64,000 nt of DNA from Burkholderiales bacterium. Its GTDB lineage: Bacteria > Pseudomonadota > Gammaproteobacteria > Burkholderiales > SG8-41. The notes under the pieces are model-generated. The model was not told the origin of the DNA and did no database searches. It saw nothing but the letters and a program-made list of their open reading frames with translations. The position numbers were made by a program, and so were the translations under genes. Position 1 is the first letter of the stretch. The number at the start of each line of letters is the position of its first letter. This document shows positions 4,275-52,618 of the stretch, in pieces. Location of the stretch: NCBI GenBank assembly GCA_035259205.1, contig DATFWO010000099.1:812-64811 (forward strand). The letters run 5' to 3'.

Positions 4275-4375
4275 CCGCCGATAGGACGATAATGCAGCTT
4301 GCGCTACGCGAAGGGAACGTCGCGCTGCGTGACGGTGAGGGGTGACCCGATGAATCGCCTTGGAGCCGGGGAAGC

Positions 4376-5449: not shown

Positions 5450-5479
5450 GCGTCCGAGCCGGATGCGATCCTGATCCAC

Positions 5480-6880: not shown

Positions 6881-6962
6881 ATCCCTAGCGCAAAAATCTT
6901 GCGTCTTCCTGCTCACCGCTCATCGCGGTTTTTGTTGATACACTGCTAAGAAACGGGTCGTC

Positions 6963-7640
6963 ATGGGCACTTATTCCATCGGCGAGATGCCGCGTCCGCT
7001 GCCGGATGCGCTGTACGCCCAGCTCATTCAGGTCGAGACGGCTACCGTCGGACACCTCCGTCACCTGGGTTTCATGCATCCGGCGATTCAAGCCCTCAGC
7101 GGTGGCCGACGCATCGTCGGCAGTGCCGTCACGCTCGCACTCCCAGCACACGATTCAACCCTTCTGCATCATGCGCTTGGCTTGACGCGGGCAGGCGACG
7201 TGATTGTCATCGACCGCCTGGGCGACGAGCGGTATGCGTGCTGGGGCGGAGGCGTCACCAATGCAGCAAACAAGGCGCGCGTGGCGGGCGCCATCGTCGA
7301 TGGGCCCTGCACCGATCCTTCGGAAATCAGGAGTCAGGGATTCGCGTTGTGGTGCAGGGGTATATCGGCCCTCACGACGCGCGTGGCTGACATCGGCGGC
7401 AGCTTGAACCTGCCGGTAGCGTGCGGCGGAGTGGTCGTTCGGCCCGGCGACATCGTTCTTGCGGATGAGAATGGGGTCGTGGTTCTGGATAGAAACGAGG
7501 GCGCTGCAATTGCGGAAGCCGCGCTCGTGCGACAGGCTGCGGCGGCGGAGCGCATGCGTGCGGTCAAAGAAGGAGCCCTCCTCGGCGAGCTCTCCGGCGC
7601 TACGGCTCTGGTCACACGCAGCCTCGAGCGTGCGAAGTAG
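6963..7640 (+). CDS. RraA family protein (aldolase/decarboxylase-like)
   Basis: 225 aa. The RraA/HMG-aldolase-like core (GDVIVID...WGG..., GAIVDGPCTD) is visible. Confidence 0.75.
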   Translation: MGTYSIGEMPRPLPDALYAQLIQVETATVGHLRHLGFMHPAIQALSGGRRIVGSAVTLALPAHDSTLLHHALGLTRAGDVIVIDRLGDERYACWGGGVTNAANKARVAGAIVDGPCTDPSEIRSQGFALWCRGISALTTRVADIGGSLNLPVACGGVVVRPGDIVLADENGVVVLDRNEGAAIAEAALVRQAAAAERMRAVKEGALLGELSGATALVTRSLERAK

Positions 7641-7654
7641 CCGACTCCTCGACC

Positions 7655-8647
7655 ATGGGACAATTGCCGAAGCGCCGTTCCCTTCTCGGTCTGCTGACGG
7701 TCGCGTCATTCCTACTGCTTGCCGCCGCCACCGCCGAGCAAGCCTATCCGAACCGCCCGATCCGGCTCGTCGTCCATACGACGGCGGGCGCGTCTTCTGA
7801 CGTGACCGCGAGAGCGACGGCAGAGGAGATGGCGAAACGGTTGGGTCAGCAATTCGTGGTCGAAAACCGTTCGGGCGCGGGCGGAATGATCGGCGCAGAA
7901 CTCGTCGCCAAGTCGGCGCCCGACGGCTACACCCTGCTGGCCGGAGCTTCGAGCGTGATCGTCATGATGCCGGCAGTCTCGAAACGCAAGCTGCCCATTG
8001 ATCTCGACATCGATCTCATTCCGATCGGACGTATCACGCACTCTCCCGGCTTCGTCCTGGTCGTAAGCGAGAAATCTCCCTACAGGAGCCTGAAGGATCT
8101 GATCACCGCGGCTAAAGGCAACCCGGGGAAGCTGACGTATGGCAGCGCCGGGCCTGCGACCAATCCGCACATGCTAGGCGAGATGTTGAACCTGCTGGCC
8201 GGCATTTCGCTCAACCACATCGCGTACAAAGGCCCCGGCCCCGCGCAGACCGATCTGCTCGGCGGAGCAATCGACTGCCAGTTCGACACGCCGTCGAGCG
8301 TGATCCAATTCGTCGCCGGGGCTAGGCTACGGGCGTTGGCGATCACCGGACCAGCCCGCTACGTCGGAATGCCGGACGTCCCGACTACGGCGGAGCTTGG
8401 CTTCCCGGACCTGTACCTGCGAGGTTGGACGGGGATGTATGCGCCGCGCGGCACGCCTTCTGTTATCGTCAACAAGTTGCGGGCGACCCTGAGGGCGGTG
8501 CTGGAAAACCCCCAATTCAAGTCGAAGTTGCTGTCGTTGGACCAGCAACCCGGCCTGCTGATCGGAGATGAGCTGCTGCTCGAGCAACGCAGGGAGCGCG
8601 AGATCTGGCGCAAAGTCGCGGCGGCCCGCAACATCGTACTGGAGTAA
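7655..8647 (+). CDS. Bug/TctC-family tripartite tricarboxylate transporter substrate-binding protein
   Basis: Signal peptide, then the AYPNRPIRLVV signature. YGSAGPAT, IAYKGPGPA and RGWTGMYAPRGTP motifs. Confidence 0.9.
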   Translation: MGQLPKRRSLLGLLTVASFLLLAAATAEQAYPNRPIRLVVHTTAGASSDVTARATAEEMAKRLGQQFVVENRSGAGGMIGAELVAKSAPDGYTLLAGASSVIVMMPAVSKRKLPIDLDIDLIPIGRITHSPGFVLVVSEKSPYRSLKDLITAAKGNPGKLTYGSAGPATNPHMLGEMLNLLAGISLNHIAYKGPGPAQTDLLGGAIDCQFDTPSSVIQFVAGARLRALAITGPARYVGMPDVPTTAELGFPDLYLRGWTGMYAPRGTPSVIVNKLRATLRAVLENPQFKSKLLSLDQQPGLLIGDELLLEQRREREIWRKVAAARNIVLE

Positions 8648-8650
8648 ACC

Positions 8651-9838
8651 ATGCAAAAAAGCAAGACCTATACCCGCATACAGGACCTGGAACGCAGCCA
8701 CGATGAGCTGGTCGCATGGCGTCATGCGATTCACAGGCAACCCGAGCTTGCGTTCAGGGAGAACGCGACAGCTCGTATGGTCGCCGACAGGCTTGCGGCG
8801 TGGGGCTATGCCGTGACCGAGCGCGTCGGCACGACGGGAGTGGTCGGCACGCTAACGGCCGGCACCGGCACGCGCAGCATAGGGCTGCGCGCGGACATGG
8901 ACGCGCTGCCGATCGCGGAGCAGACCGGCCTCCCGTACGCGAGCGTGAACGAAGGCGTGATGCACGCCTGCGGGCACGACGGCCATACGACGATGCTGCT
9001 CGGGGCAGCCAGGCATCTCGCCGCCACCCGGAATTTTTCGGGCACCGTTCACATGATCTTCCAGCCGGCCGAGGAGGCGGGTATCGACTGCGGAGCGCGC
9101 CGGATGCTGGCCGACGGCTTGTTCGAGCGCTTTCCCTGCGATGTCATCTACGGCATGCACAACCATCCCGGGAAGCGCGCGCGCACGTTTCATTTTCGCA
9201 GTGGACCCTTCATGTCGGCGTCCGATCGGGTGACGATTACCGTGAAGGGCGTCGGCGGCCACGCTGCGCGCCCGCACCAGGCTGTCGATCCTATCGTGGC
9301 GGCGGCAAGCATCGTCCTGGCGCTGCAGACCGTTGTCGCGAGAAACGTCAATCCGACGCAGATCGCCGTCGTGACGGTCGGCACGATCAACGGCGGCAAA
9401 GCCATGAACGTGATCGCCAATGAGACGACGCTGGGCCTCAGCGTCCGGTCCTTCGACGCCGATGTACGCACGCTCCTGCAGAAGCGGATTACCGAGCTCG
9501 CCACGGCCCAGGCCGCGAGCTATGGGGCAACCGCACAGGTCGACTACGGGCTTGGCCATCCCGTACTGGTCAATGCCGAGCGGGAAACCGAGTTCGCACG
9601 CCAGGTCGCCGAGGAGCTCGTTGGAGCCGACAACGTCGTGGGCCATACCGAGCAGGTGACGGGAAGCGAGGATTTCGCCTATATGCTGCAGCAGCGCCCC
9701 GGGTGCTTCGTGCGCCTCGGTAACGGCATCGGAGACCAGGTGCCAATGCTGCATACCGCCCGCTACGATTTCAACGACAGCAACCTCACGGTCGGATCTG
9801 CATACTGGGCGAGACTCGTCGAGCGCTTCCTTGAGTAA
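8651..9838 (+). CDS. M20 family amidohydrolase (hippurate hydrolase / N-acyl-amino-acid amidohydrolase-like)
   Basis: 395 aa. WRHAIHRQPELAF, ADMDALP, HACGHDGHT, FQPAEE and GSEDFAY motifs of the peptidase M20D/ILR1 group. Confidence 0.85.
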   Translation: MQKSKTYTRIQDLERSHDELVAWRHAIHRQPELAFRENATARMVADRLAAWGYAVTERVGTTGVVGTLTAGTGTRSIGLRADMDALPIAEQTGLPYASVNEGVMHACGHDGHTTMLLGAARHLAATRNFSGTVHMIFQPAEEAGIDCGARRMLADGLFERFPCDVIYGMHNHPGKRARTFHFRSGPFMSASDRVTITVKGVGGHAARPHQAVDPIVAAASIVLALQTVVARNVNPTQIAVVTVGTINGGKAMNVIANETTLGLSVRSFDADVRTLLQKRITELATAQAASYGATAQVDYGLGHPVLVNAERETEFARQVAEELVGADNVVGHTEQVTGSEDFAYMLQQRPGCFVRLGNGIGDQVPMLHTARYDFNDSNLTVGSAYWARLVERFLE

Positions 9839-9857
9839 GTTCTAGACTCGAGTTCCA

Positions 9858-10661
9858 ATGAAAGCCCAACTCGAAGATCTCACGTATGTCGAATTCCGCG
9901 AGCGCCTCAAGGACGACCCCGTCGTCATTGTTCCACTCGGCAGCCAGGAGGAACAGGGACCAAGCGCCCCGATGGGGGACTTCATGCTGGCCAAGGAGCT
10001 CGCCCGGCGCGTCGCTGAAAGGACCGGCGCTGTCGCCGCCCCGACCGTGCCTTTTGGTTATGCCGATTTCTTCAGGCCCATAGCGGGCGGGGTGCAACTG
10101 TCGGCGGATACCTTCAAGCACCTGCTGCGCGACATATTGGATAATTTTCTCGCGCATGGCCTGACGAAGCTCCTGATCTTCAACGGGCATACGGGGAATT
10201 CCCCTCTGATCGATCAGGTCGTAAGGACTGTGAAGCGCGAAACCGGAGTGGTCATTCCCTGGATCAACATTTGGCGCGCTCTGCCGGACAGCGTGTGGCG
10301 CAAAGCGCACGGCGACCGTGCATCCCGCGCGCGCGGCCACGGAGCGGATCCGCTGTCCTCCGCGTATTTGCACTTGTTCCCCGAGCTATACCGGGACGAT
10401 CTGGCCGAGGCCGCGACGGCAGGAGGCGCGTTGATCGGGCTGAAAACGGCTCACCTGCAAGGGCTCGTGTTCCAGGGGCTGGAAGTGAATGCGCCCGTGG
10501 ACATAACCGATCACACGCGCAACGGGATCGTCGCGGGCGATGCGACACTCGCAAGCGCAGAAGCGGGCAGGCTGTTTTCGGATTACATCGTCGAGCGCAC
10601 CGCCGAACTGGTCGATTATCTGAAGACCGTGCAGCAGCCTGTTGAGCCGAAGTCTCGCTAA
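9858..10661 (+). CDS. Creatininase family protein (creatinine amidohydrolase-like)
   Basis: 267 aa. PLGSQEEQGP, LIFNGHTGN and GHGADP motifs typical of the creatininase fold. Confidence 0.8.
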   Translation: MKAQLEDLTYVEFRERLKDDPVVIVPLGSQEEQGPSAPMGDFMLAKELARRVAERTGAVAAPTVPFGYADFFRPIAGGVQLSADTFKHLLRDILDNFLAHGLTKLLIFNGHTGNSPLIDQVVRTVKRETGVVIPWINIWRALPDSVWRKAHGDRASRARGHGADPLSSAYLHLFPELYRDDLAEAATAGGALIGLKTAHLQGLVFQGLEVNAPVDITDHTRNGIVAGDATLASAEAGRLFSDYIVERTAELVDYLKTVQQPVEPKSR

Positions 10662-24444: not shown

Positions 24445-24453
24445 CTACTGCGG

Positions 24454-24501
24454 GTCACGGCTCGGGTTACGAGTCGCGGATCACGGATCACCGATCTTCG
24501 G
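24454..24501. repeat. Tandem heptamer array (TCACGGA type)
   Basis: gtcacgg (24454) and gttacga (24466), then contiguous heptamers tcgcgga/tcacgga/tcaccga/tcttcgg at 24474-24501. Fills the spacer between two co-directional minus-strand genes. Confidence 0.7.
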
Positions 24502-24503
24502 TG

Positions 24504-25211
24504 TTATCCGCCCGCCGGCGCAAACCCCGTCATGCGCCAGCCGCTTTCGGTCTTGACGAAGCAGGCGCTGTGCTCGATAGCGCTGCGCACCTGTTCCTCG
24601 GGAACATAACCCTCACCGCTTTTTACTTGTACCTTCACCCAAAGTTGCTTCTCGGTCGGCACCTGGTTCGCGACCTCCCAGTCGGTGACGGCCACGATAT
24701 CGTATGAGAGCGTCTGCAGGGTTTTCGCATCGCTGCTGGGGGCCGCCTTCACCAGGACGTCGCGGGTAATGATGACCCCGTAGTCGTGTGGTATCAGGTC
24801 CTGCGGCCACTTGGCGAGCAGATATGGCGCACAGAGCTCGCGCGGCCCCTTGTCGCGCTTCAGGTAGGCGGACCCGAGAAACAGCGCGGCCTTCAGTTCC
24901 CGCCACAGCGGGCTGTCCGCCGCGGTCACATCCCATTGCTTCCTGAATTCCGGTATGCCTCGCTGGCGGTTCAGGCTCGAGCGTACGTTGCGGTCGAGTA
25001 TGCTCAACACGAACTTGAGATCGCGCTTTTCCACAGCGTTGAGCAATCGGTTCCGGAAGCTGATCCACGACGGGTCCGCGGCGGCCTCGTCTACCGGCTC
25101 GAGCTTGCGTTCCTGGCAGAAGCCCGCGGTCGACGCGATCATCAGCAGCGACAGCAGAGCGTGGACGATCTTCGGCGCTGCTCCGAATAGATGCATTGCT
25201 GGCTTCGACAT
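24504..25211 (-). CDS. Hypothetical exported protein
   Basis: Start trimmed to MSKPAMHLF... with a hydrophobic signal-like segment (LLSLLMIASTAGFC). No family recognised. Confidence 0.5.
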   Translation of the reverse strand: MSKPAMHLFGAAPKIVHALLSLLMIASTAGFCQERKLEPVDEAAADPSWISFRNRLLNAVEKRDLKFVLSILDRNVRSSLNRQRGIPEFRKQWDVTAADSPLWRELKAALFLGSAYLKRDKGPRELCAPYLLAKWPQDLIPHDYGVIITRDVLVKAAPSSDAKTLQTLSYDIVAVTDWEVANQVPTEKQLWVKVQVKSGEGYVPEEQVRSAIEHSACFVKTESGWRMTGFAPAGG

Positions 25212-25310
25212 GGCGCGGCGCTGGGGACTTTGCATAGTGCTAGAATCGACGCTGCATCCTACCACTACGCGGACGCCGGCAACAATTTCCGGCGCCACCG
25301 CATTCCGCTC

Positions 25311-25532
25311 ATGGCGCGCATCGAAATCAAGTCAGAGATAACCGGCACGGTATGGAAGGTGCATTCCAAACCCGGCGACAAGGTGGAATCGGGGGATACG
25401 CTCGCCGTGATCGAGTCGATGAAGATGGAAATTCCCGTAATCACGGAGGACGCCGGCACTGTCAGAGAGATTCTGGTCAAGGAAAAGGATGCGGTAGCGG
25501 AAGGCCAGGTCGTCGCCGTGCTCGACGGTTGA
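25311..25532 (+). CDS. Small biotin carboxyl carrier / biotinyl-domain protein (73 aa)
   Basis: Complete biotinyl domain with the canonical attachment motif IESMKMEIPV. Start trimmed to MARIEIKSEITG. Confidence 0.85.
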   Translation: MARIEIKSEITGTVWKVHSKPGDKVESGDTLAVIESMKMEIPVITEDAGTVREILVKEKDAVAEGQVVAVLDG

Positions 25533-25573
25533 CGGCCAAAGGGGAAGGAAGGCCCCGCGCAGCTACGATCTAC

Positions 25574-25609
25574 CAGTCATGCTCTATCAGTCACGCATCA
25601 CCAGCCACG
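25574..25609. repeat. 14-bp-period array, core CAGTCACG (3 units)
   Basis: cagtcatg at 25574, cagtcacg at 25588, cagccacg at 25602. Exact 14 bp spacing. Spacer between the biotin carrier and carboxyltransferase genes. Confidence 0.75.
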
Positions 25610-25622
25610 CTTCATCAAAGAC

Positions 25623-27158
25623 ATGCCATTCGAGACGCTGATAGCTGAGTACGAAAAGCGCCGGGCCAAAGCGCTCGGGATGGGCGGACCGGAAAAGCTC
25701 GCCAAGAGAAAGAAAGCGGGCGTGCTCAACGCGCGCGAGCGGGTCGAGCGCCTGTTTGATCGAGGCACGTTTCTCGAGTCGGGGCTGTTCGGCGCCTCCG
25801 GGGTGTACCCGGACGAAGCCGACGAGACGCTGACGGACGGCAAGATCGCGGGCTACGGCAAGATCGGCGGGCGCGACGTGGCGGCAGTGGTGAACGACTT
25901 CACGGTGAAGGGCGCTTCCACCAGCGCGACCAACAGCAAGAAGGTCGCCCACATGAAGCGCACCGCGACCGAGCGCGGCATACCGCTCGTGATCATCGGG
26001 GAATCCACTGGCGCGCGGCTGCCCGACGCCATGGGCTCGCGCGGCATGGGACAGTTGCTCGGCAACGACCCCACGCAATTTCGTCGCATGCGCGAGACAC
26101 CTCTTGCAACTGCCGTGCTGGGTCCGTCATTCGGCTCTTCGGCGTGGCTCGCCTGCCTCGCCGATTTCGCGGTCATGCACAAGGGCGCCACGATGGCGGT
26201 CTCGAGCCCGCGGCTGATCGAGATGGCGCTGAACGAGAAGGTGAATTTCGAGGAGCTGGGCGGGTGGCGGCTGCACGCGGAGACGACCGGCCTGGTGGAC
26301 CAGGTGGTGGACAAGGAAGAGGAGGTGTTCGAGGCCATCCGGCGCTTCTTGTCCTACATGCCGGGCCACAACCAGGAAGCGCCGCCGGATGCGTCGGTGC
26401 CCGAGGGCTCGGGCGCGGAGATGGCCGCCGTCTTCGGCGTGCTGCCGGAGAGCCGCACGCAGGTCTACGACATGAAGCGCATCATCCGCGCGGTCGTGGA
26501 CCGGGACACGTTCTTCGAGCTGAAGCCCCGCTTCGGCAAGAGCGCGGTGACGGCGCTCGCCCGGCTGGGCGGCAAGAGCGTGGGGGTCGTCGCCAACAAC
26601 CCGCTGCATCGGGGCGGCGCGCTCGATGCCGATGCGTGCCGCAAGATAACGGACTTTCTCGTCCTGTGCGATTCCTTCAACGTGCCGATCGTCCTGCTCG
26701 TGGACACGCCGGGCTTCCAAATCGGCACCGAGGCCGAAAAGAGCGGCGCGCCCGGAAAGATCATGAACTTCATGAACGCGATGACGTTGCTCACAGTGCC
26801 GCGGCTTTCCGTCATCATCCGCAAGAGCTACGGGCGCGCCTACGTCTGCATGGGCGGCGGCCGGCATTCGGACGACGTGGCGGCGTGGCCCACGGCGGAG
26901 GTAAGCTTCATGAGTCCGGATTTCGCGACGCGCATCGTGCACGGCGTAAAGCCGGGCGATCCCGCCTTCCAGGAGAAACTCGCGGAGATCGAGCAGGAAA
27001 GCGATGTCTGGGGACTGGCCTCGGTGTTCGCGGCGCAGGCAGTGATCAAACCCGAAGAGACCCGCGACTATCTCATACGCATGCTTGAAGTTTACCGGCT
27101 GCGAATGACGCGCGGCGTCGGGCAGCATCTGATGCGCTGCTGGCCTACCTCTTACTGA
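25623..27158 (+). CDS. Acyl-CoA carboxylase carboxyltransferase subunit (PccB/AccD5-like)
   Basis: 511 aa carboxyl-transferase protein (GVLNARERVERL, NDFTVKGAS, LVDTPGF, RKSYGRAY). Roughly half the positions match the copy at 2739-4274 by eye. Confidence 0.9.
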   Translation: MPFETLIAEYEKRRAKALGMGGPEKLAKRKKAGVLNARERVERLFDRGTFLESGLFGASGVYPDEADETLTDGKIAGYGKIGGRDVAAVVNDFTVKGASTSATNSKKVAHMKRTATERGIPLVIIGESTGARLPDAMGSRGMGQLLGNDPTQFRRMRETPLATAVLGPSFGSSAWLACLADFAVMHKGATMAVSSPRLIEMALNEKVNFEELGGWRLHAETTGLVDQVVDKEEEVFEAIRRFLSYMPGHNQEAPPDASVPEGSGAEMAAVFGVLPESRTQVYDMKRIIRAVVDRDTFFELKPRFGKSAVTALARLGGKSVGVVANNPLHRGGALDADACRKITDFLVLCDSFNVPIVLLVDTPGFQIGTEAEKSGAPGKIMNFMNAMTLLTVPRLSVIIRKSYGRAYVCMGGGRHSDDVAAWPTAEVSFMSPDFATRIVHGVKPGDPAFQEKLAEIEQESDVWGLASVFAAQAVIKPEETRDYLIRMLEVYRLRMTRGVGQHLMRCWPTSY

Positions 27159-27163
27159 AGAGC

Positions 27164-27295
27164 GTGATGAGTAATGGGTGATGAGTGATGGGCAAAATCG
27201 TAAGTTGAACTGTTGGCTTACTACCAGAAGAAACAATCTAGCGCGACCAAGCCCTCGCTAGAGGGCAGTTCTACTCATTACCCATCACCCATCAC
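27164..27295. repeat. Mirror heptamer arrays (GTGATGR x4 / complement x3) flanking a central hairpin
   Basis: gtgatga gtaatgg gtgatga gtgatgg at 27164-27191. Complementary ctcatta cccatca cccatca c at 27273-27295. Perfect hairpin gccctc-gcta-gagggc at 27251-27266. Confidence 0.8.
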
Positions 27296-27296
27296 G

Positions 27297-28646
27297 ATGT
27301 TCAATAAGATAGTCGTTGCGAATCGCGGTGCTGTCGCTGCTCGCGTAATCCGTGCATTAAACGAGATGGGGCTACGCTCCGTCGCGGTCTATTCCGAGGC
27401 GGATGCCGGGGCGCCCTACCTGGAGCTGGCCGGCGAGTCCCATGCGATCGGCCCGGGACCTGCGCGCGAGAGCTATCTCAACCAAGATCGATTGCTTGAA
27501 GTGCTGCGCGAGTCACACGCCGACGCGCTTCATCCGGGGTATGGCTTTCTATCCGAGAATGCCGGGTTTGCGCGGCGCGTCAACCAGAGCGGCGCGCGCT
27601 TTGTCGGTCCGTCGCCGCGGTGGATAGAAGCGATGGGCCACAAGACCCAGGCCCGGGAGCTCGCGGCGCGCTACGGCATGCCCATGTCGAAGGGCTCGGG
27701 GATATTGCCGGAAGAGAGGGAGGCGATCGTGGCGGCAGCGCGCGAGATCGGGTTTCCGGTGCTGGTGAAACCGGCAGGCGGAGGGGGTGGCATCGGGATG
27801 CTGCCGGCGGCGGACGAATCCGCGCTGCTCGGCGCGGTCGAGCGCTCTCGATCCATGGCTGCCCGCGGTTTCGGCACGTCCGAAGTCTTTCTCGAGCGGT
27901 TGATGGAGCGTCCGCGCCACGTCGAGTTCCAGGTCCTCGGCGACATGCACGGCGCCATGGTGCACCTCTACGAACGGGATTGTTCCACACAGCGCCGCAA
28001 TCAGAAGGTAATCGAAGAAGCTCCCGCACCTGGAATCGCGCGCCCGCGCGCCGTCGCGCAGGCGGAGCAAGTGGCCGGCATCGTGCGCGAAATGGGCTAC
28101 GACAATATCGGCACGGTGGAAATGCTGATGGAGACCGAAGGCGCGTTCAGCTTCCTCGAAATGAACACCCGGCTGCAGGTAGAGCACGGCGTGACCGAGG
28201 AAATCACGGGCGTAGACCTGGTGAAAGCCCAGATCCGCGCCGCCGCCGGTGAGAAGCTGGCGGATATTCTGCCCGCTGGGATAGAAGTGCGCGGTCACGC
28301 GATCGAGGCCCGCGTTTACGCGGAGGACCCGAAGAATTTCTTTCCCTCGCCGGGGCGACTCAGGGTTTTCCGCCCGCCGCAAGGTGGGGGCATACGGGTC
28401 GAAACCGGCTATGCGGAAGGCCGCGAGGTGACGCCGCACTACGATCCGATGCTCGCCAAGGTGATCGCTCACGCCGAAACGCGGGAGCAGGCGGCGGCGA
28501 GATTGGCTGAGGCGCTGGAAGCGTTTGCGATCGAAGGGCCGAAGGTCAACGTGCCCGCGGTGCTCGCCGTGCTGCGCTCGGAGCCGTTTTGCGCCGGGCG
28601 CGTGCACACCGGCCTGATTCCTGAAGTACTGGGGAGAAAATCCTAG
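27297..28646 (+). CDS. Biotin carboxylase (ATP-grasp, AccC-like)
   Basis: Start trimmed to MFNKIVVANRGAVAARVIRA. GYGFLSEN, KPAGGGGGIGM, EMNTRLQVEH and HA.EARVYAEDP motifs of biotin carboxylases. Confidence 0.9.
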   Translation: MFNKIVVANRGAVAARVIRALNEMGLRSVAVYSEADAGAPYLELAGESHAIGPGPARESYLNQDRLLEVLRESHADALHPGYGFLSENAGFARRVNQSGARFVGPSPRWIEAMGHKTQARELAARYGMPMSKGSGILPEEREAIVAAAREIGFPVLVKPAGGGGGIGMLPAADESALLGAVERSRSMAARGFGTSEVFLERLMERPRHVEFQVLGDMHGAMVHLYERDCSTQRRNQKVIEEAPAPGIARPRAVAQAEQVAGIVREMGYDNIGTVEMLMETEGAFSFLEMNTRLQVEHGVTEEITGVDLVKAQIRAAAGEKLADILPAGIEVRGHAIEARVYAEDPKNFFPSPGRLRVFRPPQGGGIRVETGYAEGREVTPHYDPMLAKVIAHAETREQAAARLAEALEAFAIEGPKVNVPAVLAVLRSEPFCAGRVHTGLIPEVLGRKS

Positions 28647-28737
28647 CCACGGAAACACACGGAAGGGCACGGAATTTTCCAGAAGAAAGCCGCTGACGTT
28701 TGGTGCAACCCTCCGCGTGATTCCGTGGTTCCGTGGC
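28646..28737. repeat. CACGGAA / TTCCGTG inverted array element, copy 1
   Basis: cacggaa at 28648, 28658 and 28668. Inverted ttccgtg at 28721 and 28729. The left arm is near-identical to 59815-59848. Confidence 0.8.
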
Positions 28738-28759
28738 TGAATTGACTTCGTGATACGCA

Positions 28760-29464
28760 ATGGACGGGCGTAAACTGATTTTGGAGGCCAGGAAGCAGGG
28801 ACGGTCGGCGCTCGATGAGCTAGCGGGCAAGCAATTGCTTGCGAGTTACGGCATTGCTGTGCCGAAATCCCTCGTAGTCCGCGATGCAGCGCAGGCGGCT
28901 TCGACGTGCGCGACCCTCAAGCCGCCGCTGGTGCTCAAGGTGATGTCGCCCGACATCCTCCACAAGAGCGACGTGGGCGGCGTCAGAGTCGGTCTGAACA
29001 GCGGCGAAGCGATCGTCGAGGCGATCAGGGAGATGATGGCCACGCCGCAGATCGGCAACGCGCGCATCGACGGCTTTCTGGTCGAGGAGATGGCGCCGGC
29101 GGGGCAGGAGATCGTCATCGGCGGCGTGCGCGATCCGCAATTCGGCCCGCTCGTCATGCTGGGGCTGGGCGGGCTGTTCGTCGAAGTTCTGGCGGATGTT
29201 GCATTCCGCATTTGCCCGATCACCGGGCTCGATGCCGAAGAGATGCTTGATGAGCTGAAGGGCGCTGCGCTGCTCGCCGGCGCGCGCGGGCGCAAGCCGG
29301 CGTCGCGTGCCGCCGTTTTGGATTCGCTGCTCAAGGTGGGTGGTGCGGGGGGCCTGCTGATGGGCTACGCGGACGACATCAAGGAGGCGGACATCAATCC
29401 GCTCGTCGTTTCGGAAACCGGCGCGATGGCGGTCGATGCGCGCTTTGTTTTAACCAAAAGGTGA
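28760..29464 (+). CDS. ADP-forming acyl-CoA synthetase, beta (ATP-grasp) subunit
   Basis: 234 aa ATP-grasp_5-type domain (KV.SPDILHKSDVGGV, ADINPL), as in NDP-forming acetyl-CoA synthetase beta subunits. Confidence 0.8.
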   Translation: MDGRKLILEARKQGRSALDELAGKQLLASYGIAVPKSLVVRDAAQAASTCATLKPPLVLKVMSPDILHKSDVGGVRVGLNSGEAIVEAIREMMATPQIGNARIDGFLVEEMAPAGQEIVIGGVRDPQFGPLVMLGLGGLFVEVLADVAFRICPITGLDAEEMLDELKGAALLAGARGRKPASRAAVLDSLLKVGGAGGLLMGYADDIKEADINPLVVSETGAMAVDARFVLTKR

Positions 29465-29579
29465 CGAGGTACGGGTGACGAAGATGCGGGTGACGAGATA
29501 CAGGTGACGAGATACGGCTGGCCCTGGTTGTAGGTCACCCTTATTCGTCACCCTTATTCGTCACCTTTATTCGGCACCT
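29461..29579. repeat. Mirror arrays: 4 x GTGACGA (14-15 bp period) and 4 x GTCACC (13 bp period)
   Basis: gtgacga at 29461, 29475, 29490 and 29504. gtcaccc/gtcaccc/gtcacct/ggcacct at 29534, 29547, 29560 and 29573. The first unit contains the upstream TGA stop. Confidence 0.85.
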
Positions 29580-29584
29580 CTTTG

Positions 29585-31069
29585 ATGAGCGAGAACGTAA
29601 TCGAGCGCTTCCGGCCGCTGTTCGAGCCGAAGACAGTGGCGGTCCTCGGCGCGTCGAGCCGCGGCGGGACGGTTTCCAACATCTTCATCCGCCGCATCCG
29701 TGAGTTCGGCTTCGAAGGAGCAATCTATCCGATACACCCGTCGGCCGAGAGCATAGACGGACTGCCGGCCTATCGCAGTCTCGCCGGCACGCCCGACGTC
29801 GTCGACTATGCGTTCATCGCGATTCCCGGTGGACAGATACCGTCCCTGCTCACGGAGGCGCGGGGACGCGTGCGATTCGCGCAGGTGATTTCCAGCGGAT
29901 TCGGCGAGGTCGACGAGGGCAGGCAGCTGCAGGACCAGTTGGTCGCGGCAGCGCGCGAGGGAGGCATGCGGCTGATCGGCCCCAACTGTCTGGGCCTCTA
30001 TTCGCATCGCGGCAAGGTCACCTTTACCGAGACCTGGCCGCAGGAGCTGGGCACGATAGGGGTCATTTCACAAAGCGGCGGGCTTGGCACGGACATCGTG
30101 CGCCGGGGAATCATCCGGGGCCTCAAGTACTCCGCCGTGGTGACTGTGGGCAATTGCGCTGACGTCGGGCCGAGCGAGCTGCTCGAGTACTATCTGGCCG
30201 ACGCGCAGACCCGCGTCGTCGGAATGTATATCGAATCGGCCGGTGACGGTCGGCGGCTGTTCGAGATGCTGCGCGCAGCGCAAGCGAAAAAACCGGTCGT
30301 GATCCTGAAGGGAGGACGCACGCGACTGGGCAAGATGGCCGCGGCCTCGCACACCGGCTCGCTTGCTGGCGATGATCGCGCGTGGGTCGCTCTGTCCCGG
30401 CAAACAGGGTGTGTCCTGGTGGAGACGCTGGATCAGTTCCTGGATGCGCTGCTCGCGTTCCAGACGCTCAAGCCGCGGCCGCAGCATCCCACGCGGGAGA
30501 CCGTGTTGTTCGGCAACGGCGGCGGGGCGAGCGTGCTGGCAACCGATACCTTTGCCCGCCTGCAGCTGGAGGTCGCGCCGTTCGCCGAACAGGCGCTGGA
30601 GGCGCTCGCTGCGCTCAAGCTGCCGCCCGGCAGCAGCATATCGAACCCGGTGGATACTCCGGTCAGCACGCTCCGCCACGAGGATGGGGCGGTCGCGGAA
30701 AAAATCCTCGAGGCGATCTACGGGGTTGGCCGCCCGCAGGCGCTGGTCATGCACCTCAATCTGTCCGCGTTCGTGGGCCGCACCCAGAGCGACGTCCTGG
30801 GCAACCTCATGGAGATCGCGCTGCGAGTGCAGGCGCGCTATCCCGGGCAGGCGCACTTCATGCTGGTGCTGCGCGCGGACGGCGAGCCGGCGCTGGAAGA
30901 GCGCAAGCGGCAGTTCCGCGCCCGGGCGACGGCGCTCGGGATACCCGTGTACGACGAGCTCGAGCACGCGGCCCGCGCGCTCGCGGCGCTGGCCTTTCAC
31001 GAGCGGTTCCTGCATTCGAGAGCATTGACCGTGACTCGTGACTCGACCCCGATTACGGAAGCTTGTTAA
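29585..31069 (+). CDS. ADP-forming acyl-CoA synthetase, alpha (CoA-binding/ligase) subunit
   Basis: CoA-binding N-terminus (VAVLGASSRGG), GPNCLG, and the phospho-histidine loop AASHTGSLAGDD. ATG at 29585 preferred over the TTG at 29582 in the ORF track. Confidence 0.85.
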   Translation: MSENVIERFRPLFEPKTVAVLGASSRGGTVSNIFIRRIREFGFEGAIYPIHPSAESIDGLPAYRSLAGTPDVVDYAFIAIPGGQIPSLLTEARGRVRFAQVISSGFGEVDEGRQLQDQLVAAAREGGMRLIGPNCLGLYSHRGKVTFTETWPQELGTIGVISQSGGLGTDIVRRGIIRGLKYSAVVTVGNCADVGPSELLEYYLADAQTRVVGMYIESAGDGRRLFEMLRAAQAKKPVVILKGGRTRLGKMAAASHTGSLAGDDRAWVALSRQTGCVLVETLDQFLDALLAFQTLKPRPQHPTRETVLFGNGGGASVLATDTFARLQLEVAPFAEQALEALAALKLPPGSSISNPVDTPVSTLRHEDGAVAEKILEAIYGVGRPQALVMHLNLSAFVGRTQSDVLGNLMEIALRVQARYPGQAHFMLVLRADGEPALEERKRQFRARATALGIPVYDELEHAARALAALAFHERFLHSRALTVTRDSTPITEAC

Positions 31070-31141
31070 GCTGCCGTTAAATCACGCCTCATCAGTCGCG
31101 CCTCGCCAGTCACGAACCATCAGTCACGCATCAGCAGTTAC
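31031..31141. repeat. GTGACTC x2 followed by 5-unit 14-bp-period CAGTCACG array
   Basis: gtgactc at 31031 and 31038 (inside the 3' end of the upstream CDS). aaatcacg, cagtcgcg, cagtcacg, cagtcacg and cagttac at 31079, 31093, 31107, 31121 and 31135. Confidence 0.8.
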
Positions 31142-31147
31142 TTTCCC

Positions 31148-32356
31148 ATGTACCAGTCCGATTTCAGAGCAGTTCACTATCCCTATCGCCTTTACAGCGG
31201 CAAGAACGCCCTCGACAAGCTGCCCGATGAAGTCGGCCGGCTCAAAGCGCGCCGCGCGTACATCGTTTGCGGCCGCACCGTATCGCGCAAGACACCGCTC
31301 ATTTCGCACATGCGGGAACTGCTGGGCACGGCTTGCGCTGGCGTGTTCGACGAAGTCGACAAGGAAACCACCCGTTCTTCCATGGTGCGCGCGACCGAGG
31401 CGGCGCGTGCGGCGCAGGCGGACCTGATCATAGGGGTGGGAGCAGGCAGCGTGATACAGGGCGCGCGTATCGTTGCGATCCTGCTCGCGGAAAAGAAACC
31501 GATCGAGGAGCTGATTACGAAGTATCCGGAGCAGGGTCCCGCCGTGAGCGCGCGGTTGATGGAGCGGAAGCTCCCCATCATCAATGTACTCACCGCGCCG
31601 ACAACGGCGCAGAATCGGGCGGGTTCGAGAATGAAAGACGACGAAACCGCCCGCGGCATGGAGTTCTTCGACCCGAAGACGCGGCCCGCGGCGATTTTCT
31701 GGGATGAGGACGCGCTGCTCACCGCGCCGGTATCGCTCATACGCTCGACGGCGAGCGCGGTTTATTGCCGCGCAGTGACGAATCTGGGCGGTGTTGCGAT
31801 CAATCCGCTGGTGGAGGGCGACCGGTTGCAGGCCTATCGGCTCACTTCCAGGGCGCTCGCGCGTATCGCCGCTCTCGCCGACGCCGGCCCGCGCTACGAC
31901 CTGTGCGCAGCGACCTTGCTTCAGAACCGGGAGAACGACGACGGCGGCGCCCAGTTCGAGCGTCTGTGGGCGGTGCGCGTGGCGTATGCGCTGTCAACTG
32001 CGCTCATCAGCATTTGCGGGCACGTCGGCCAGGGCGAGGCCTACAGTTCGTTGATGGGCACGGTAACGCGGCAGCTGGGGGCGCGGGATCCGGAGGCAAT
32101 GGCGCGGATCGCCCATGCGCTGGAAATCGCGAAGGAGGGAGAGCCCCCGGCGCAAATGCCGGCACGCGTTGCCGATAGCTTCGACGCGACTTTTCGCTCG
32201 ATCGGCATGCCGATTCGCCTTTCGCAGCTGGATATCGATCGCGCGGTTTTTCCGCGCCTGGTCGAGCACTCGCTCACCAACTTCAACGCGGACCCCAAGC
32301 GCGAGTTCCGCCGTGAGGGGGAGATGCTGACCGAGGTTCTCGAAGCGGCCTGGTAA
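31148..32356 (+). CDS. Iron-containing alcohol dehydrogenase family protein (maleylacetate-reductase-like)
   Basis: 402 aa Fe-ADH fold with IIGVGAGSVIQGAR in place of the GGGS loop. Last gene of the carboxylase operon. Confidence 0.7.
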   Translation: MYQSDFRAVHYPYRLYSGKNALDKLPDEVGRLKARRAYIVCGRTVSRKTPLISHMRELLGTACAGVFDEVDKETTRSSMVRATEAARAAQADLIIGVGAGSVIQGARIVAILLAEKKPIEELITKYPEQGPAVSARLMERKLPIINVLTAPTTAQNRAGSRMKDDETARGMEFFDPKTRPAAIFWDEDALLTAPVSLIRSTASAVYCRAVTNLGGVAINPLVEGDRLQAYRLTSRALARIAALADAGPRYDLCAATLLQNRENDDGGAQFERLWAVRVAYALSTALISICGHVGQGEAYSSLMGTVTRQLGARDPEAMARIAHALEIAKEGEPPAQMPARVADSFDATFRSIGMPIRLSQLDIDRAVFPRLVEHSLTNFNADPKREFRREGEMLTEVLEAAW

Positions 32357-40970: not shown

Positions 40971-41020
40971 CGTCCCAGGTACATCGTCCCAGGTAGGGCG
41001 TCCCAGATGCAGCGTCTTAG
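40971..41020. repeat. 14-bp-period array, core CGTCCCAG (4 units)
   Basis: cgtcccag at 40971, 40985 and 40999, and cgtcttag at 41013. Begins 1 nt after the CocE/NonD stop codon. Confidence 0.8.
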
Positions 41021-41221
41021 AGGAGGCGCCGGTTTCAAATTGCCAGGGCGCTCAGCTGGCCGGGTCCTGTCGGAACGGCTGACGCCTGAAACTTTCCCCT
41101 CCTGCAAATAGGAGGGTGGCGCGCGTAGGCCCGCCGGGGTGGTCAGGTTAGTGGAAGAAACCGCGAAGCTGGAAGGCCTGCTTCTGCCTTCCTCCTTCCG
41201 CCGTCTGCCTTATGTAGTGAC

Positions 41222-43016: not shown

Positions 43017-43088
43017 GGGGCGCGATCCTCCGTGCTGTCGGGCGATTGTGCCGGGCTGAACGGCTGATGGCTAGCATCGAGCTCCGCA

Positions 43089-43126
43089 GTGACGAGCTGC
43101 GCGGTGACGAGTTTCACGGTGACGAG
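43089..43126. repeat. 15-bp-period array, core GTGACGAG (3 units)
   Basis: gtgacgag at 43089, 43104 and 43119, in the spacer between the cupin and thiolase genes. Confidence 0.75.
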
Positions 43127-43300
43127 CTGAGCGGTAGCGCGTCGAGGGGCGGGGTAGTGCCCCGTTTACGTGTCTGCCTGAGGGTCAGATCACGTTCCTC
43201 AAGCGAAGCGTGTTGCGAGGATGTCAGACCGTCATGTCAAGACCTGAACCCCGTCAACGCCTGCGCCTGACCGCTGACGCCCGACCCCTGACGGCCTCGT

Positions 43301-46767: not shown

Positions 46768-46798
46768 CGGGCCTCGCTGCCCCGCAACCTGAAAAATG

Positions 46799-46878
46799 GT
46801 GATGAAGGACAGTAATGAATACTGGTGACGTACATCATCATTTTCTCATCACTTCTTCTCAGCACCAGTTCTCATCGC
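46799..46878. repeat. Mirror 13-bp-period arrays (GTGATGA type / TCATCAC type)
   Basis: gtgatga at 46799, gtaatga at 46812, gtgacg at 46825. Then catcatc, tcatcac, tcagcac and tcatcgc at about 46833, 46846, 46859 and 46872. Confidence 0.7.
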
Positions 46879-46886: not shown

Positions 46887-47131
46887 CAGCTGACCGGGTC
46901 CTGTCGGAACGACCGGCGCCTGCCTCCGATTCTCCCAGCGTACCTGCAAGAAGGATTTGGCCGTCGCGTTTTCATGAGATCGTACCGAGCTCGGGAGAAT
47001 CGGATCAGTCACCGGCCATTCCGCCACCCGGCCGCTGTTCGGAGACTGGACTGCCCGCGAAACCATATTTCTTAAAGTGGGCCCGCCAGCCCTCCCCATC
47101 CGCCCCAGCAAGGACAGGACCCGGCCAGCTG
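46887..47131. repeat. MITE-like element bounded by 19-bp imperfect terminal inverted repeats
   Basis: cagctgaccgggtcctgtc (46887-46905) versus the reverse complement of gacaggacccggccagctg (47113-47131), 18/19 match. Internal perfect 11-bp inverted repeat ccgattctccc / gggagaatcgg (46926-46936 / 46993-47003). No ORF with coding character inside. Confidence 0.6.
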
Positions 47132-48190: not shown

Positions 48191-48300
48191 GGCAAGGAGG
48201 AAGGCAGAAGGCGGAAGGAGGAAGTAACGGCCGGCGTCGTCACTGTGGAACTCGTCACCGCGCAGTCGTAACTGCAACGCTCATCACCGCGAAGCCGCGA
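48189..48300. repeat. Purine-rich heptamer array (AAGGNNG) followed by 14-15-bp-period CGTCAC array
   Basis: aaggcag aaggcgg aaggagg aagtaac at 48201-48228, with looser units from 48189. cgtcac, cgtcac, cgtaac and catcac at 48238, 48253, 48267 and 48282. Confidence 0.7.
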
Positions 48301-49690: not shown

Positions 49691-49705
49691 GTTGTTTCTC
49701 CCAAT

Positions 49706-49758
49706 GTAACTGACTCTGATGAATGTGACTGTCTCATCAGTCACGCCGCACCAGTCAC
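49706..49758. repeat. GTGACTG / CAGTCAC palindromic units
   Basis: gtaactg at 49706 and gtgactg at 49725. cagtcac at 49738 and 49752. 49725-49744 is a perfect 7-bp stem with a 6-nt loop. The last unit overlaps the stop of the hydrolase gene. Confidence 0.75.
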
Positions 49759-51517: not shown

Positions 51518-51536
51518 TTCGCTCCTCCTCGTGAGG

Positions 51537-51680
51537 CGTGACTACTAAAACGTGACTGATACAGCGTGACTGATGAATCGTGACTGTTAATGCGTGGTCT
51601 TCTGGGGGCGCTCTTTCAGATACGTTACACCAGTCACGCCGTTTCAGTCACGTGGCACCAGTCACGCATCAACAGTCACG
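51537..51680. repeat. Mirror-symmetric array: 5 x CGTGACTG then 5 x CAGTCACG, exact 14-bp period
   Basis: Direct units at 51537, 51551, 51565, 51579 and 51593 (degenerate). Inverted units at 51617 (degenerate), 51631, 51645, 51659 and 51673. The 16-nt centre is 51601-51616. The 6-nt inter-core segments are not complementary between arms. Confidence 0.9.
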
Positions 51681-52608: not shown

Positions 52609-52618
52609 GGCGATAGGA

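Follow-up and report, generated by a model that had tools for sequence, protein, structure and literature searches.

The stretch of DNA considered here (the window, 64,000 nt from a Burkholderiales bacterium) carries an operon of six cistrons, all on the forward strand and all confirmed by Pfam. They encode, in order, a biotin carboxyl carrier protein (BCCP) of 73 aa (25311-25532; Biotin_lipoyl), a carboxyltransferase (25623-27158; Carboxyl_trans), a biotin carboxylase (27297-28646; Biotin_carb_N, matched from residue 1), the ATP-grasp_5 subunit of an ADP-forming acyl-CoA synthetase (28760-29464), a CoA-binding/Succ_CoA_lig subunit (29585-31069; identified from Pfam and the sequence) and a member of the iron-containing alcohol dehydrogenase family (31148-32356; Fe-ADH). 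The start codons assigned in a sequence-only reading of this DNA gain support from relatives, where for most cistrons the tblastn match sets in at residue 1 or 2. A scan of the spacers for promoter-like or terminator-like sites found none.

Periodic arrays had been claimed for all five intercistronic spacers, and TRF and a repeat finder detected them in each. The tandem periodicity is significant throughout: 12, 0, 0, 0 and 2 of 1000 dinucleotide shuffles matched the score of spacers 1 to 5, respectively. Inverted complementarity is significant in spacers 2 to 5 (scores reached by 0, 0, 2 and 36 of 1000 such shuffles) and absent from spacer 1 (984 of 1000). The four spacers with mirror arrays, in which a left array near the stop codon faces a complementary right array near the next start, occupy 27159-27296, 28647-28759, 29465-29584 and 31026-31147.

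All arrays are described on the forward strand. Spacer 1 contains, 5 nt past the BCCP stop codon, a short purine-rich run, AAAGGGGAAGGAAGG (25538-25552), which belongs to a GGAAGGN heptamer family found also at 41181-41211 and 48194-48224 of the window; the homologous junction of relative L030 has a long form of it, GGCGGAAGGAGGAAGGCGAAAGGCGGAAGGG. The start-proximal array of spacer 1 detected by TRF (25574-25614), CAGTCATG / CAGTCACG / CAGCCACG with 14-nt spacing, is pyrimidine-rich and unpaired and ends 8 nt from the ATG at 25623; CAGTCACG occurs 15 times against 2.6 expected. Both programs found the arrays of spacer 2: GTGATGA/GTAATGG heptamers (27164-27192) beginning 5 nt past the TGA stop, and their reverse complement ACTCATTACCCATCACCCATCACG (27272-27296), which runs up to the last base before the ATG at 27297. 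The repeat finder placed in spacer 3 three copies of CACGGAA with 10-nt spacing adjoining the TAG stop (28647-28675), with orthologous arrays in L029, L004, L035, L041 and L033, and a right array, CGTGATTCCGTGGTTCCGTGGCT (28716-28738), that covaries in alignment A1. Spacer 4 has 4.1 copies of GGTGACGAGATACG (29460-29517; TRF score 86), the first unit of which contains the TGA stop, and 3.5 copies of GTCACCCTTATTC (29534-29578; TRF score 76); in relatives, TGACGAG units continue from the stop right into the start. In spacer 5 the left array found by TRF, TGACCGTGACTCGTGACTCG (31026-31045), lies within the 3' end of the CoA-ligase reading frame, so that the last codons of cistron 5 traverse it, and the homologous array in L005 and L030 begins with the stop codon. 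The right array of spacer 5 (31082-31138; TRF score 58) is of the CAGTCACG type, with 4.1 copies at a period of 14 nt, and reaches to 9 nt from the ATG at 31148.

RNA folding separates spacer 1 from the others. It is predicted to be unstructured (z +1.9, less structured than 199 of 200 shuffles), while the predicted energies of spacers 2 to 5 are -54.7, -41.5, -52.9 and -33.2 kcal/mol (z -5.15, -2.74, -4.54 and -2.49). Spacer 2 pairs 27163-27169 with 27290-27296; spacer 3 forms a stem of 28644-28654 with 28729-28739 that includes the stop codon; spacer 4 pairs 29466-29470 with 29576-29580; and spacer 5 forms a hairpin over 31026-31133. The predicted stems of spacers 2 to 4 begin 4, 0 and 1 nt past the stop codon (or inside it), and those of spacers 2 to 5 end 0, 20, 4 and 14 nt upstream of the AUG. 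The idea that arm pairing brings stop and start together holds for spacers 2 to 4, where the stop comes to lie within 0-20 nt of the next start; in spacer 5 the left arm is inside the CoA-ligase reading frame and the stop codon is therefore in the loop. A set of 98 distinct long spacers from orthologous junctions shows the same stop-to-start geometry (median fold z -3.3; 64 with z < -2), and in roughly 60 of 87 the helix starts no more than about 3 nt from the stop. These predicted folds support the structural premise of the sequence-only reading. Sense and antisense strands fold equally well, however (31 vs 32), and arm mismatches are strand-symmetric (47 G.U-type vs 47 A.C-type, hence no sense-strand G.U excess), so that nothing identifies the maintained entity as RNA rather than as a DNA palindrome or a copying mechanism.

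The absence of a Shine-Dalgarno sequence from all six starts was borne out by anti-Shine-Dalgarno duplex energies, which range from +3.6 to -2.4 kcal/mol (-1.7 for BCCP), random window sequence being stronger (median -3.0). Strong Shine-Dalgarno sequences, said to be common elsewhere in the window, proved not to be the norm: of 56 genes called roughly, only 20 have a first start at -6 kcal/mol or below, as compared to 17.5% of random positions. Weak Shine-Dalgarno sequences are not tied to array-bearing junctions, since relatives without arrays have them too, and the median energies at long and short spacers (-3.0 and -4.2 kcal/mol) give p = 0.13. Conversely, arrays stand upstream of the genes at 51517, 61368 and 49690, which have good Shine-Dalgarno sequences. 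The pattern that the earlier reading described, repeats before starts that lack a Shine-Dalgarno sequence, resembles the TAACTGA direct repeats of marine Beggiatoaceae, cyanobacteria and Bacteroidetes (MacGregor 2015, PMC4679880). Those tandem heptamers lie a few nucleotides before start codons, apparently in place of a Shine-Dalgarno sequence, in genomes where use of that sequence is low; about 10% of the repeat-bearing intergenic regions have one as well. Unlike the arrays of the window, they consist of a single unit, nearly always in direct repeat (1 inverted case in 170 sets), and neither a stop-anchored partner array nor a hairpin is described for them (PMC4679880).

Arrays are not special to this operon, though they are unusually frequent in it. 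The 24 to 62 kb part of the window has about 18 array loci, some of them after the terminal genes of convergent pairs, and dozens of uncultured Betaproteobacteria have arrays at the same operon junctions. Density is 5.7 times greater in intergenic than in coding DNA, and arrays occur at 89 of 171 of this operon's junctions (52%) as against 9 of 133 other co-directional junctions (7%), figures that are uncorrected for phylogeny and depend on crude gene calls outside the operon. A period of 7 dominates (64 of 130 arrays), with others of 8-10 and 13-14 nt, and at least eight unrelated unit families occur within the 64-kb window; unit families are also common to non-orthologous junctions and to different genomes. 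Relative to the end of the stop codon, the median position at which left arrays begin is -0.5 nt; the median distance from the end of a right array to the start is 10 nt. The purine content is 67% in stop-proximal arrays (above 50% in 58 of 64) and 39% in start-proximal ones, and this polarity relative to the coding strand is kept by 16 of 19 unpaired arrays. At the coal>adh and bccp>ct junctions of relatives there are usually two arrays that are not complementary to each other. The spacers very probably belong, then, to a lineage-wide class of short-unit tandem-repeat arrays with fixed polarity at gene ends. I am similarly confident of the rule that governs the class: a purine- or G-rich array begins at the stop codon or overlaps it, and a pyrimidine- or C-rich array reaches to about 10 nt from the next start.

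This architecture is in all likelihood the one published for the GGGAATC repeats of Xanthomonas campestris and X. axonopodis (Rehm et al. 2015, PLoS One, PMC4692102), here present in uncultured soil Burkholderiales and in many unit families. Those repeats are tandem heptamers, typically of about four units, strongly intergenic and chiefly between co-oriented ORFs. Their G-rich array, on the coding strand, overlaps the stop or lies no more than 50 bp from it, and the complement array is at most 50 bp upstream of the ORF that follows. Each genome has 70-75 convergent, stem-loop-capable pairs, at junctions shared by related species with variable length and sequence; the function is described as unknown, no regulatory role having been found (PMC4692102). 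The window arrays have the same stop-anchored G-rich and start-proximal complement layout. They differ from the single, G-quadruplex-forming family of Xanthomonas in the number of families, none of which in the window has a G3 quadruplex motif, in periods that reach 8-10 and 13-14 nt, and in their host, an uncultured Betaproteobacterium. New are the several unit families unable to form quadruplexes, the strong enrichment at the junctions of one operon, and the concerted, compensatory evolution of both arms, with some homologous spacers more conserved than their flanking genes and others turned over; arm evolution and conservation of this kind are not among the results in the portions of Rehm et al. 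(2015) cited.

The evidence on arm evolution is as follows. Across alignments, 86% of arm cells are paired, as compared to 36-45% with a slid partner; double changes occur in 22 of 30 arm pairs, and compensatory cells number 92 as against 35 +/- 5 in shuffles. Pairing is maintained by compensatory change, which likewise supports the structural premise. At one junction, where the units read CACGGAA / CACAGAG / CGCAGAG / CGCCAAG, point changes are common to all units of both arms, a pattern of concerted evolution. Divergence is 3-8 times slower in homologous spacers than at third codon positions (again uncorrected for phylogeny), and some of them, loops included, exceed both flanking genes in identity; the 120 nt of spacer 4 show 1 change from those of L029, as against 8.5-10.8% at third codon positions. 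Where copy number changes, it does so by whole units, and it is constant over third-position divergence of 6-30%. Short spacers occupy these same junctions in many relatives and read TGACGAGTG or stop-GCCAAGGAG-N-ATG. In others, these very junction words stand in 2-4 tandem copies, so the stop-proximal units look to have been amplified in place from the junction sequence.

How might such arrays act? It is an established concept that intercistronic structure unfolded by an upstream ribosome can couple translation of two cistrons, classically through short local structures that overlap the ribosome-binding site. Where both arrays come from one unit family, as in spacers 2 to 5, they would be reverse complements, and the polycistronic transcript would form a hairpin of 20-30 bp that loops out the whole insert and puts the stop codon about 0-20 nt from the next start. 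A ribosome terminating at the stop would have to melt the base of the stem, freeing the strand that adjoins the next AUG, and a downstream cistron without a Shine-Dalgarno sequence would stay tied to its upstream neighbor despite a spacer of 110-140 nt. The arms would co-vary, on this proposal, because selection keeps the stop-to-start geometry. The folds make such coupling geometrically plausible: the stop codon is at the helix base, the other strand adjoins the next start, and the downstream cistron lacks a Shine-Dalgarno sequence. Unlike the classical cases, the helix would bridge 80-140 nt and consist of tandem repeats, and the initiation region would be unpaired in two of the four mirror spacers.

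The sequence-only interpretation is thus supported in part, in its structural half; its functional half, that coupling or segment stability might set subunit stoichiometry in this operon, is conjectural. The enrichment of 52% vs 7% favors some operon-linked role. Against a device dedicated to the operon stand the lack of a hairpin in spacer 1 and the mostly non-complementary arrays at the coal>adh and bccp>ct junctions of relatives, the arrays elsewhere in the window (after convergent terminal genes and before genes with good Shine-Dalgarno sequences), the weak Shine-Dalgarno sequences that are not array-linked and the missing G.U excess. Coupling itself is further opposed by the arrays behind the last genes of convergent pairs, which have no further cistron to be coupled with, and by the predicted stems of spacers 3 and 5, which end 14-20 nt before the AUG and so would leave the initiation region free without coupling; nor was a regulatory role found in the Xanthomonas study (PMC4692102). 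Coupling through the mirror-array hairpin is accordingly a tentative proposal, possible but doubtful, and the combination of class identity with hairpin coupling, the best explanation as a whole, has in my estimate a probability of about 40%.

The arrays may instead be a non-adaptive by-product, a doubtful reading though one with a real chance of being right. Heptamer-scale replication slippage would amplify junction words, template switching would copy arm onto arm, and the arrays would persist since the gap between stop and ribosome-binding site is the only tolerated place, their complementarity kept by DNA-level copying, not by selection on expression. The strand-symmetric mismatches and equal folding of both strands fit this well, as do concerted evolution, whole-unit copy number changes, units that match native junction words, the short spacers of many relatives and the polymerase slippage proposed for an excess of heptamer repeats (cited in PMC4692102). 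It accounts poorly for spacers and loops more conserved than flanking coding DNA, for stable copy number, for the operon enrichment and for the purine polarity of unpaired arrays. Rather unlikely is an effect on the mRNA, not on downstream initiation, like that of the REP/BIME elements of enterobacteria and pseudomonads, which are extragenic, transcribed and hairpin-forming, mostly 3' of genes and between co-oriented genes, and which stabilize upstream mRNA or, within 15 nt of the stop codon (as in Escherichia coli), lower the output of the upstream gene (PMC12306157, which summarizes Liang, Rudd and Deutscher 2015 and Newbury 1987 as precedents). A hairpin at the stop codon could block 3' exonucleases and RNase E, giving segments with different half-lives, or could stall the ribosome just before termination and so reduce what the upstream cistron yields, the effect known from the E. 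coli REPs. The window arrays are likewise extragenic, hairpin-forming and at gene 3' ends; hairpins of -33 to -55 kcal/mol are predicted 0-4 nt past the stop codon, also across orthologs, and the arrays after terminal genes suit a 3'-end role. The sense-strand G.U bias is absent, however, single arrays and non-complementary pairs cannot make such hairpins, and the fixed distance of about 10 nt between right array and next start is left without a reason. A REP unit is, moreover, itself an imperfect palindrome of 20-40 nt, from one or few families linked to RAYT transposases, whereas the arms here are tandem arrays of non-palindromic 7-14 nt units from many families.

It is improbable that the arrays are multivalent single-stranded RNA or DNA sites for a protein reading about 7 nt per domain (a cold-shock-domain protein, ribosomal protein S1 or a CsrA-like protein), with the hairpin secondary or a competitor. 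Cold-shock proteins, S1 and CsrA have been proposed for the TAACTGA repeats (PMC4679880), CANGGA/AAGGA occurs in many left units, and the dominant heptamer period, the unit families shared by non-orthologous junctions and several genomes, the conserved arm sequence and the open structure of spacer 1 are all to be expected of such sites; yet at least eight unrelated families in one window would call for many specificities or none, and the motifs of mirror spacers would be buried in a duplex of 20-30 bp. Less probable still are MITE-like or REPIN-like miniature transposable elements inserting beside stop codons. Arms would then be terminal inverted repeats, orthologous junctions are indeed filled in some genomes and empty in others, similar CACAGAG-type elements occur at different junctions in L008, L016 and L076, and spacers look younger than their flanking genes. 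This reading is weakly refuted by the lack of near-identical copies at non-orthologous sites (similarity is 73-76%, in arms only, the loops being unrelated) and of an evident target-site duplication, as well as by units that derive from local junction sequence and by non-complementary array pairs.

A more distant resemblance is to the 5' region of hmw in Haemophilus influenzae, which, in the excerpts of PMC12721329 considered, has a heptamer repeat tract with an RNase III-targeted element, again intergenic repeats where mRNA structure and processing could matter. As those excerpts present it, that tract is a phase-variable contingency locus of variable copy number upstream of a promoter-proximal gene, unlike the arrays described here, which lie inside an operon and are stable in copy number.

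The six cistrons of the sequence-only reading are borne out by Pfam, which recognizes, in order, a BCCP (bccp, 25311-25532), a carboxyltransferase (ct, 25623-27158), a biotin carboxylase (bc, 27297-28646), an ATP-grasp_5 subunit (grasp, 28760-29464), a CoA-binding/Succ_CoA_lig subunit (coal, 29585-31069) and an Fe-ADH (adh, 31148-32356). The gaps between them will be called spacers 1 through 5. Start codons are for the most part backed by tblastn matches in relatives that begin at residue 1 or 2. The arrays reported in all five spacers are also there according to TRF and a repeat finder (periods of arrays in the window are 7, 8, 10, 13 and 14 nt), and their tandem periodicity is significant in each, the observed score being reached by at most 12 of 1000 dinucleotide-preserving shuffles. 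The left (stop-proximal) and right (start-proximal) arms are significantly complementary in spacers 2-5, where 0, 0, 2 and 36 shuffles per 1000 reach the observed score. Arm complementarity was not found in spacer 1, where 984 of 1000 dinucleotide-preserving shuffles do so.

The RNAs of spacers 2-5 are predicted to fold into long hairpins of -54.7, -41.5, -52.9 and -33.2 kcal/mol (z of -5.2, -2.7, -4.5 and -2.5), and for spacer 1, 199 of 200 shuffles are more structured than the RNA itself. On the left, the stems of spacers 2-4 begin 0-4 nt past the stop codon or inside it, and on the right, those of spacers 2-5 end 0, 20, 4 and 14 nt before the AUG. The left arm of spacer 5 lies within the CoA-ligase ORF. 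At 31026-31069 that ORF runs through the left array, with its stop 22 nt further on. In L005 and L030 (such handles denote fetched relative loci with the orthologous operon), the stop codon forms the beginning of the homologous array. About 37 residues at the C-terminal end of the window's CoA ligase are conserved in no relative, matches finishing at residue 457.

None of the six starts has a Shine-Dalgarno (SD) sequence, as had been claimed: the energies of their duplexes with the anti-SD lie between +3.6 and -2.4 kcal/mol and are weaker than those of random sequence from the window (median -3.0). The companion claim, that strong SDs are common elsewhere in the window, was overstated, since of the 56 genes called roughly no more than 20 have a first start that attains -6 kcal/mol, an energy also reached at 17.5% of random window positions. 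Among the orthologous operons, the median SD energy is -3.0 behind long array-bearing spacers vs. -4.2 behind short ones, but the link between the presence of arrays and loss of the SD is not significant (p = 0.13). Weak SDs are therefore not tied to the arrays and are a trait of the operon and of much of the genome.

The source of the window is a soil Betaproteobacterium not yet cultured, and the genomes closest to it are Burkholderiales MAGs, with an amino-acid identity of 77-82%. Exact-sequence lookups of the window's carboxyltransferase brought up no contigs other than identical ones from the same samples and so were uninformative on evolution. The set of relatives consists of 25 genome loci and 80 metagenome loci with the orthologous operon. 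At the same operon junctions, dozens of relatives have arrays and others have spacers of 0-30 nt. I analysed 98 distinct spacers that are long (at least 60 nt), for which the median fold z is -3.3, with 64 of them below -2. A long-range helix is present in 87, beginning no more than 3 nt from the stop in about 60. As called by TRF, left arrays have a median starting point of -0.5 nt relative to the end of the stop codon, which often lies within the first unit, and the median gap between a right array and the start is 10 nt. The 130 junction arrays have TRF periods of 7 (64 arrays), 8 (16), 9 (25), 10 (11) or 13-15 (14), and arrays are 5.7 times as dense in intergenic as in coding DNA (1.69 vs. 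0.30 per kb). Stop-proximal arrays are 67% purine (G 37%, C 18%) and start-proximal arrays 61% pyrimidine (C 34%, G 20%).

Arrays are found at 89 of 171 junctions of the operon vs. 9 of 133 other co-directional junctions in the same loci (Fisher p of about 1e-18, uncorrected for shared ancestry). Outside the operon, arrays occur in 1 of 14 divergent regions, in 8 of 72 that are co-directional and in 3 of 19 that are convergent, and no array lies in the three divergent regions of the window; these numbers are low, and the crude gene caller overlooks the BCCP gene of 73 aa.

Clear mirrors, in which the two arms are reverse complements, make up 38 of the 89 array-bearing spacers. The purine bias of stop-proximal arrays is kept in 16 of 19 non-complementary spacers. 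Non-complementary pairs (CGTGAAT three times followed by AACCTTG eight times, for example) occur often at the junctions coal>adh and bccp>ct, and spacer 1 of the window is of this type. In the sense folds of 64 mirror spacers, pairs with A in the 5' arm and T in the 3' arm number 728 vs. 346 of the reverse; A-first pairs are thus twice as frequent, and the mirror elements have a fixed purine-first order, which inversion cannot alter. Nested in the loops of array hairpins of L033, L034, L035, L036, L081, L014, L052, L061 and L108 is an element of another kind, a palindrome rich in G+C (CCCCTCCTCAACGAGGAGGGG is an example), which recurs at junctions that differ from genome to genome. The bc>grasp spacers of L050, L055 and L081, 226-247 nt long, are nested mirrors, with one CGCCAAG-type hairpin inside another.

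The two arms evolve together. At bc>grasp the unit differs between clades (CACGGAA, CACAGAG, CGCAGAG, CGCAAAG, CGCCAAG), each point change being common to all units of both arms, with the matching complement on the right for every variant. In a stem-anchored alignment of 14 bc>grasp sequences, whose right anchor was picked by eye and by maximum pairing and so somewhat favours pairing, 86% of cells are paired, as compared to 36-45% when the partner is slid, and 22 of 30 pairs have changes on both sides. Compensatory cells number 92 vs. 35 +/- 5 in shuffles, none of 500 shuffles reaching 92.

Clearly homologous spacers evolve much more slowly than the third codon positions of the neighbouring gene. 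Spacer 4 of the window has diverged from that of L029 by 0.8%, with a third-position divergence of 8.5%; the corresponding spacer and third-position values are 0.05 and 0.22 for grasp>coal of L045 vs. L076, 0.05 and 0.40 for grasp>coal of L033 vs. L034, and 0.095 and 0.41 for bc>grasp of L033 vs. L041. Identity profiles show such spacers as islands above both flanking genes, and because identity falls on both sides, recombination blocks were rejected as the source of the conservation. Other pairs with similar gene divergence have spacers that cannot be aligned. Taken together, the conserved and the unalignable pairs indicate that spacer evolution is bimodal, with turnover breaking into long stasis.

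The junctions of short-spacer relatives hint at where units come from. These read TGACGAGTG, or the stop codon followed by GCCAAGGAG-N-ATG, and other relatives have two to four tandem copies of the same junction words, running up to the start codon. The comparison suggests that units were amplified in place from a junction sequence made up of stop codon and SD-like word, an origin that would explain their purine richness. At grasp>coal of L048, L072, L052 and L027, tandem TGACGAG runs from the stop straight into a GTG start, each unit containing a GTG start that overlaps a TGA stop (GTGA). Such junctions look like early stages of array growth. Stops in all three frames occur within 36 nt of the stop codon in 25 of the 98 spacers vs. 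4% in shuffles. The effect is limited to GTGA-type units and gives no general rule, so arrays as all-frame stop traps were rejected.

Intergenic heptamer repeats are known from cyanobacteria, Xanthomonas and Beggiatoa, along with a general bacterial excess, and have gone decades without a function (PMC4692102, PMC4679880). The closest counterpart is the GGGAATC heptamer of Xanthomonas, for which Rehm et al. (2015, PMC4692102) describe a G-rich array on the coding strand, overlapping the stop or within 50 bp of it, and its complement no more than 50 bp ahead of the next ORF. Each genome has 70-75 such convergent pairs; the repeats are transcribed and are rare between divergent ORFs, and that study found no function. 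I found no later work on the function of these repeats and nothing in the literature on the literal array sequences. The arrays considered here share with the GGGAATC repeats (PMC4692102) the head-to-tail units of about 7 nt in 2 to about 5 copies, the purine/G-rich stop-proximal array on the coding strand, the C-rich complementary array before the next ORF (the mirrors of spacers 2-5) and the scarcity in coding DNA. Unlike the GGGAATC repeats, the present units lack the four G3+ tracts of a quadruplex, and the G-quadruplex hypothesis made for Xanthomonas was rejected for the operon, the five spacers containing no G3 or C3 quadruplex motif. The TAACTGA heptamers of MacGregor (2015, PMC4679880) lie just upstream of starts, apparently in place of an SD.

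A MITE or recent transposition was rejected: a blastn search with every long spacer against 768 kb gave no near-identical copy at a non-orthologous site, matches there being at 73-76% only and in the arms only, and arrays of the same family in the window have unrelated loops. Intrinsic terminators were also rejected, as the spacers contain no terminator-like site and the region has 5 vs. 6.1 expected. Nor do the spacers contain promoter-like sites beyond chance; for transcription of the arrays, the lack of both kinds of site gives only indirect support. An Rfam covariance-model search of the window found nothing at gathering score, with only two chance-level matches (E of 0.23 and 0.3) within 25200-31300. 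REP/BIME elements are associated with RAYT (Y1) transposases and exceed 100 copies per genome. Their unit is an imperfect palindrome of 20-40 nt, whereas the units here are non-palindromic 7-14-mers and complementarity arises only between the two arrays together. An effect on mRNA like that of REPs is one alternative to coupling. As summarised in PMC12306157, the gene upstream is translated less when a REP lies no more than 15 nt from a stop codon, and REPs also stabilise the mRNA upstream of them.

The entity maintained may be an RNA hairpin, a DNA palindrome or a copying process, and the data do not single out RNA. Sense and antisense folds are equally stable (31 vs. 32) and the mismatches in DNA-level arm alignments divide equally between G.U and A.C types (47 vs. 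47), so that selection at the RNA level could not be demonstrated. Further alternatives are a non-adaptive process acting on DNA and a protein-binding role. If the arrays are a self-maintaining mutational by-product, they would offer a clean case of the concerted evolution of palindromes without selection, and a warning that covariation should not be taken to prove a functional RNA structure. Translational coupling agrees with the geometry of spacers 2-4 and with the enrichment of arrays in a multi-subunit operon, and I consider it the most likely effect, with a probability of roughly 0.3, although it is not specifically supported. The geometry expected of a coupling element is found in spacers 2 and 4 (0 and 4 nt to the AUG), partly in spacers 3 and 5 (20 and 14 nt), and is absent from spacer 1.

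A bolder and rather improbable form of the coupling proposal is that stop-anchored purine arrays and start-anchored pyrimidine arrays constitute a dedicated, SD-independent coupling device, widespread in uncultured Burkholderiales and present with other units in Xanthomonas and cyanobacteria. The hairpin would loop out the spacer and pass the terminating ribosome to the next start codon or, in a variant, the 30S subunit would be kept by the SD-like left units and then passed on. Such a device would account for the long-unexplained excess of intergenic heptamers in bacteria. More generally, if arrays control termination-linked initiation or the fate of mRNA, they would represent a layer of operon regulation that is widespread and has been overlooked. 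The observation itself is real, and it belongs to a class that is known but unexplained. What is new is the number of non-quadruplex unit families in an uncultured Burkholderiales lineage, the concerted compensatory evolution of their arms, and the conservation of some spacers above that of flanking genes. The operon is a favourable test bed, because across about 100 metagenomic relatives its junctions are either a few nt long or filled with arrays, the latter showing clear compensatory evolution and in some cases conservation beyond that of neighbouring genes.

From 24 to 62 kb, the window has arrays of the same kind at about 18 loci. Examples outside the operon are 24445-24503, 40971-41016, 41181-41211, 43078-43293, 46795-46876, 48194-48224, 49700-49760, 51536-51680, 52617-52720, 57533-57602, 59826-59988 and 61395-61450. 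Their density is strongly regional, positions 1-24000 having none, the nine-gene co-directional cluster at 1201-10661 included. Some lie 3' of the last gene in a convergent pair, and some precede genes with a good SD (51517, 61368, 49690). The octamer CAGTCACG occurs 15 times in the 64-kb window vs. 2.6 expected, mostly at an exact spacing of 14 nt and at five loci (25588, 31107-31128, 49738, 51551-51680 and 52633-52668). In the mRNA sense its units are almost always just 5' of a start codon, with a good SD between array and start at 51517 and 49690.

Purine-rich, SD-like GGMGGAA heptamer arrays stand directly after stops (mRNA sense) at 41181-41211, 48194-48224 and 25538-25552, with no complementary partner nearby. 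The minus-strand mirror element at 59826-59988 has a left CACGGAA array after the upstream stop codon and a right arm (TTCCGTG twice) within the stretch of the next gene that encodes the signal peptide; the start codon of that gene (ATG at 59872) is therefore in the loop. A dispersed, non-tandem REP-like element, CCAGCTGRCCGGGTCCTGTCGGAACG, is found in two intergenic regions (41060-41077 and 46894-46911), each time adjoining an array. A direct duplication of about 60 nt (GACCGGGGG.GCGGGGGGAA.CGGGAAGGCTCCGATGATTTAGAGGAAGGG), at 58700-58761 and 58795-58856, lies in the spacer upstream of a minus-strand gene that starts near 58673.
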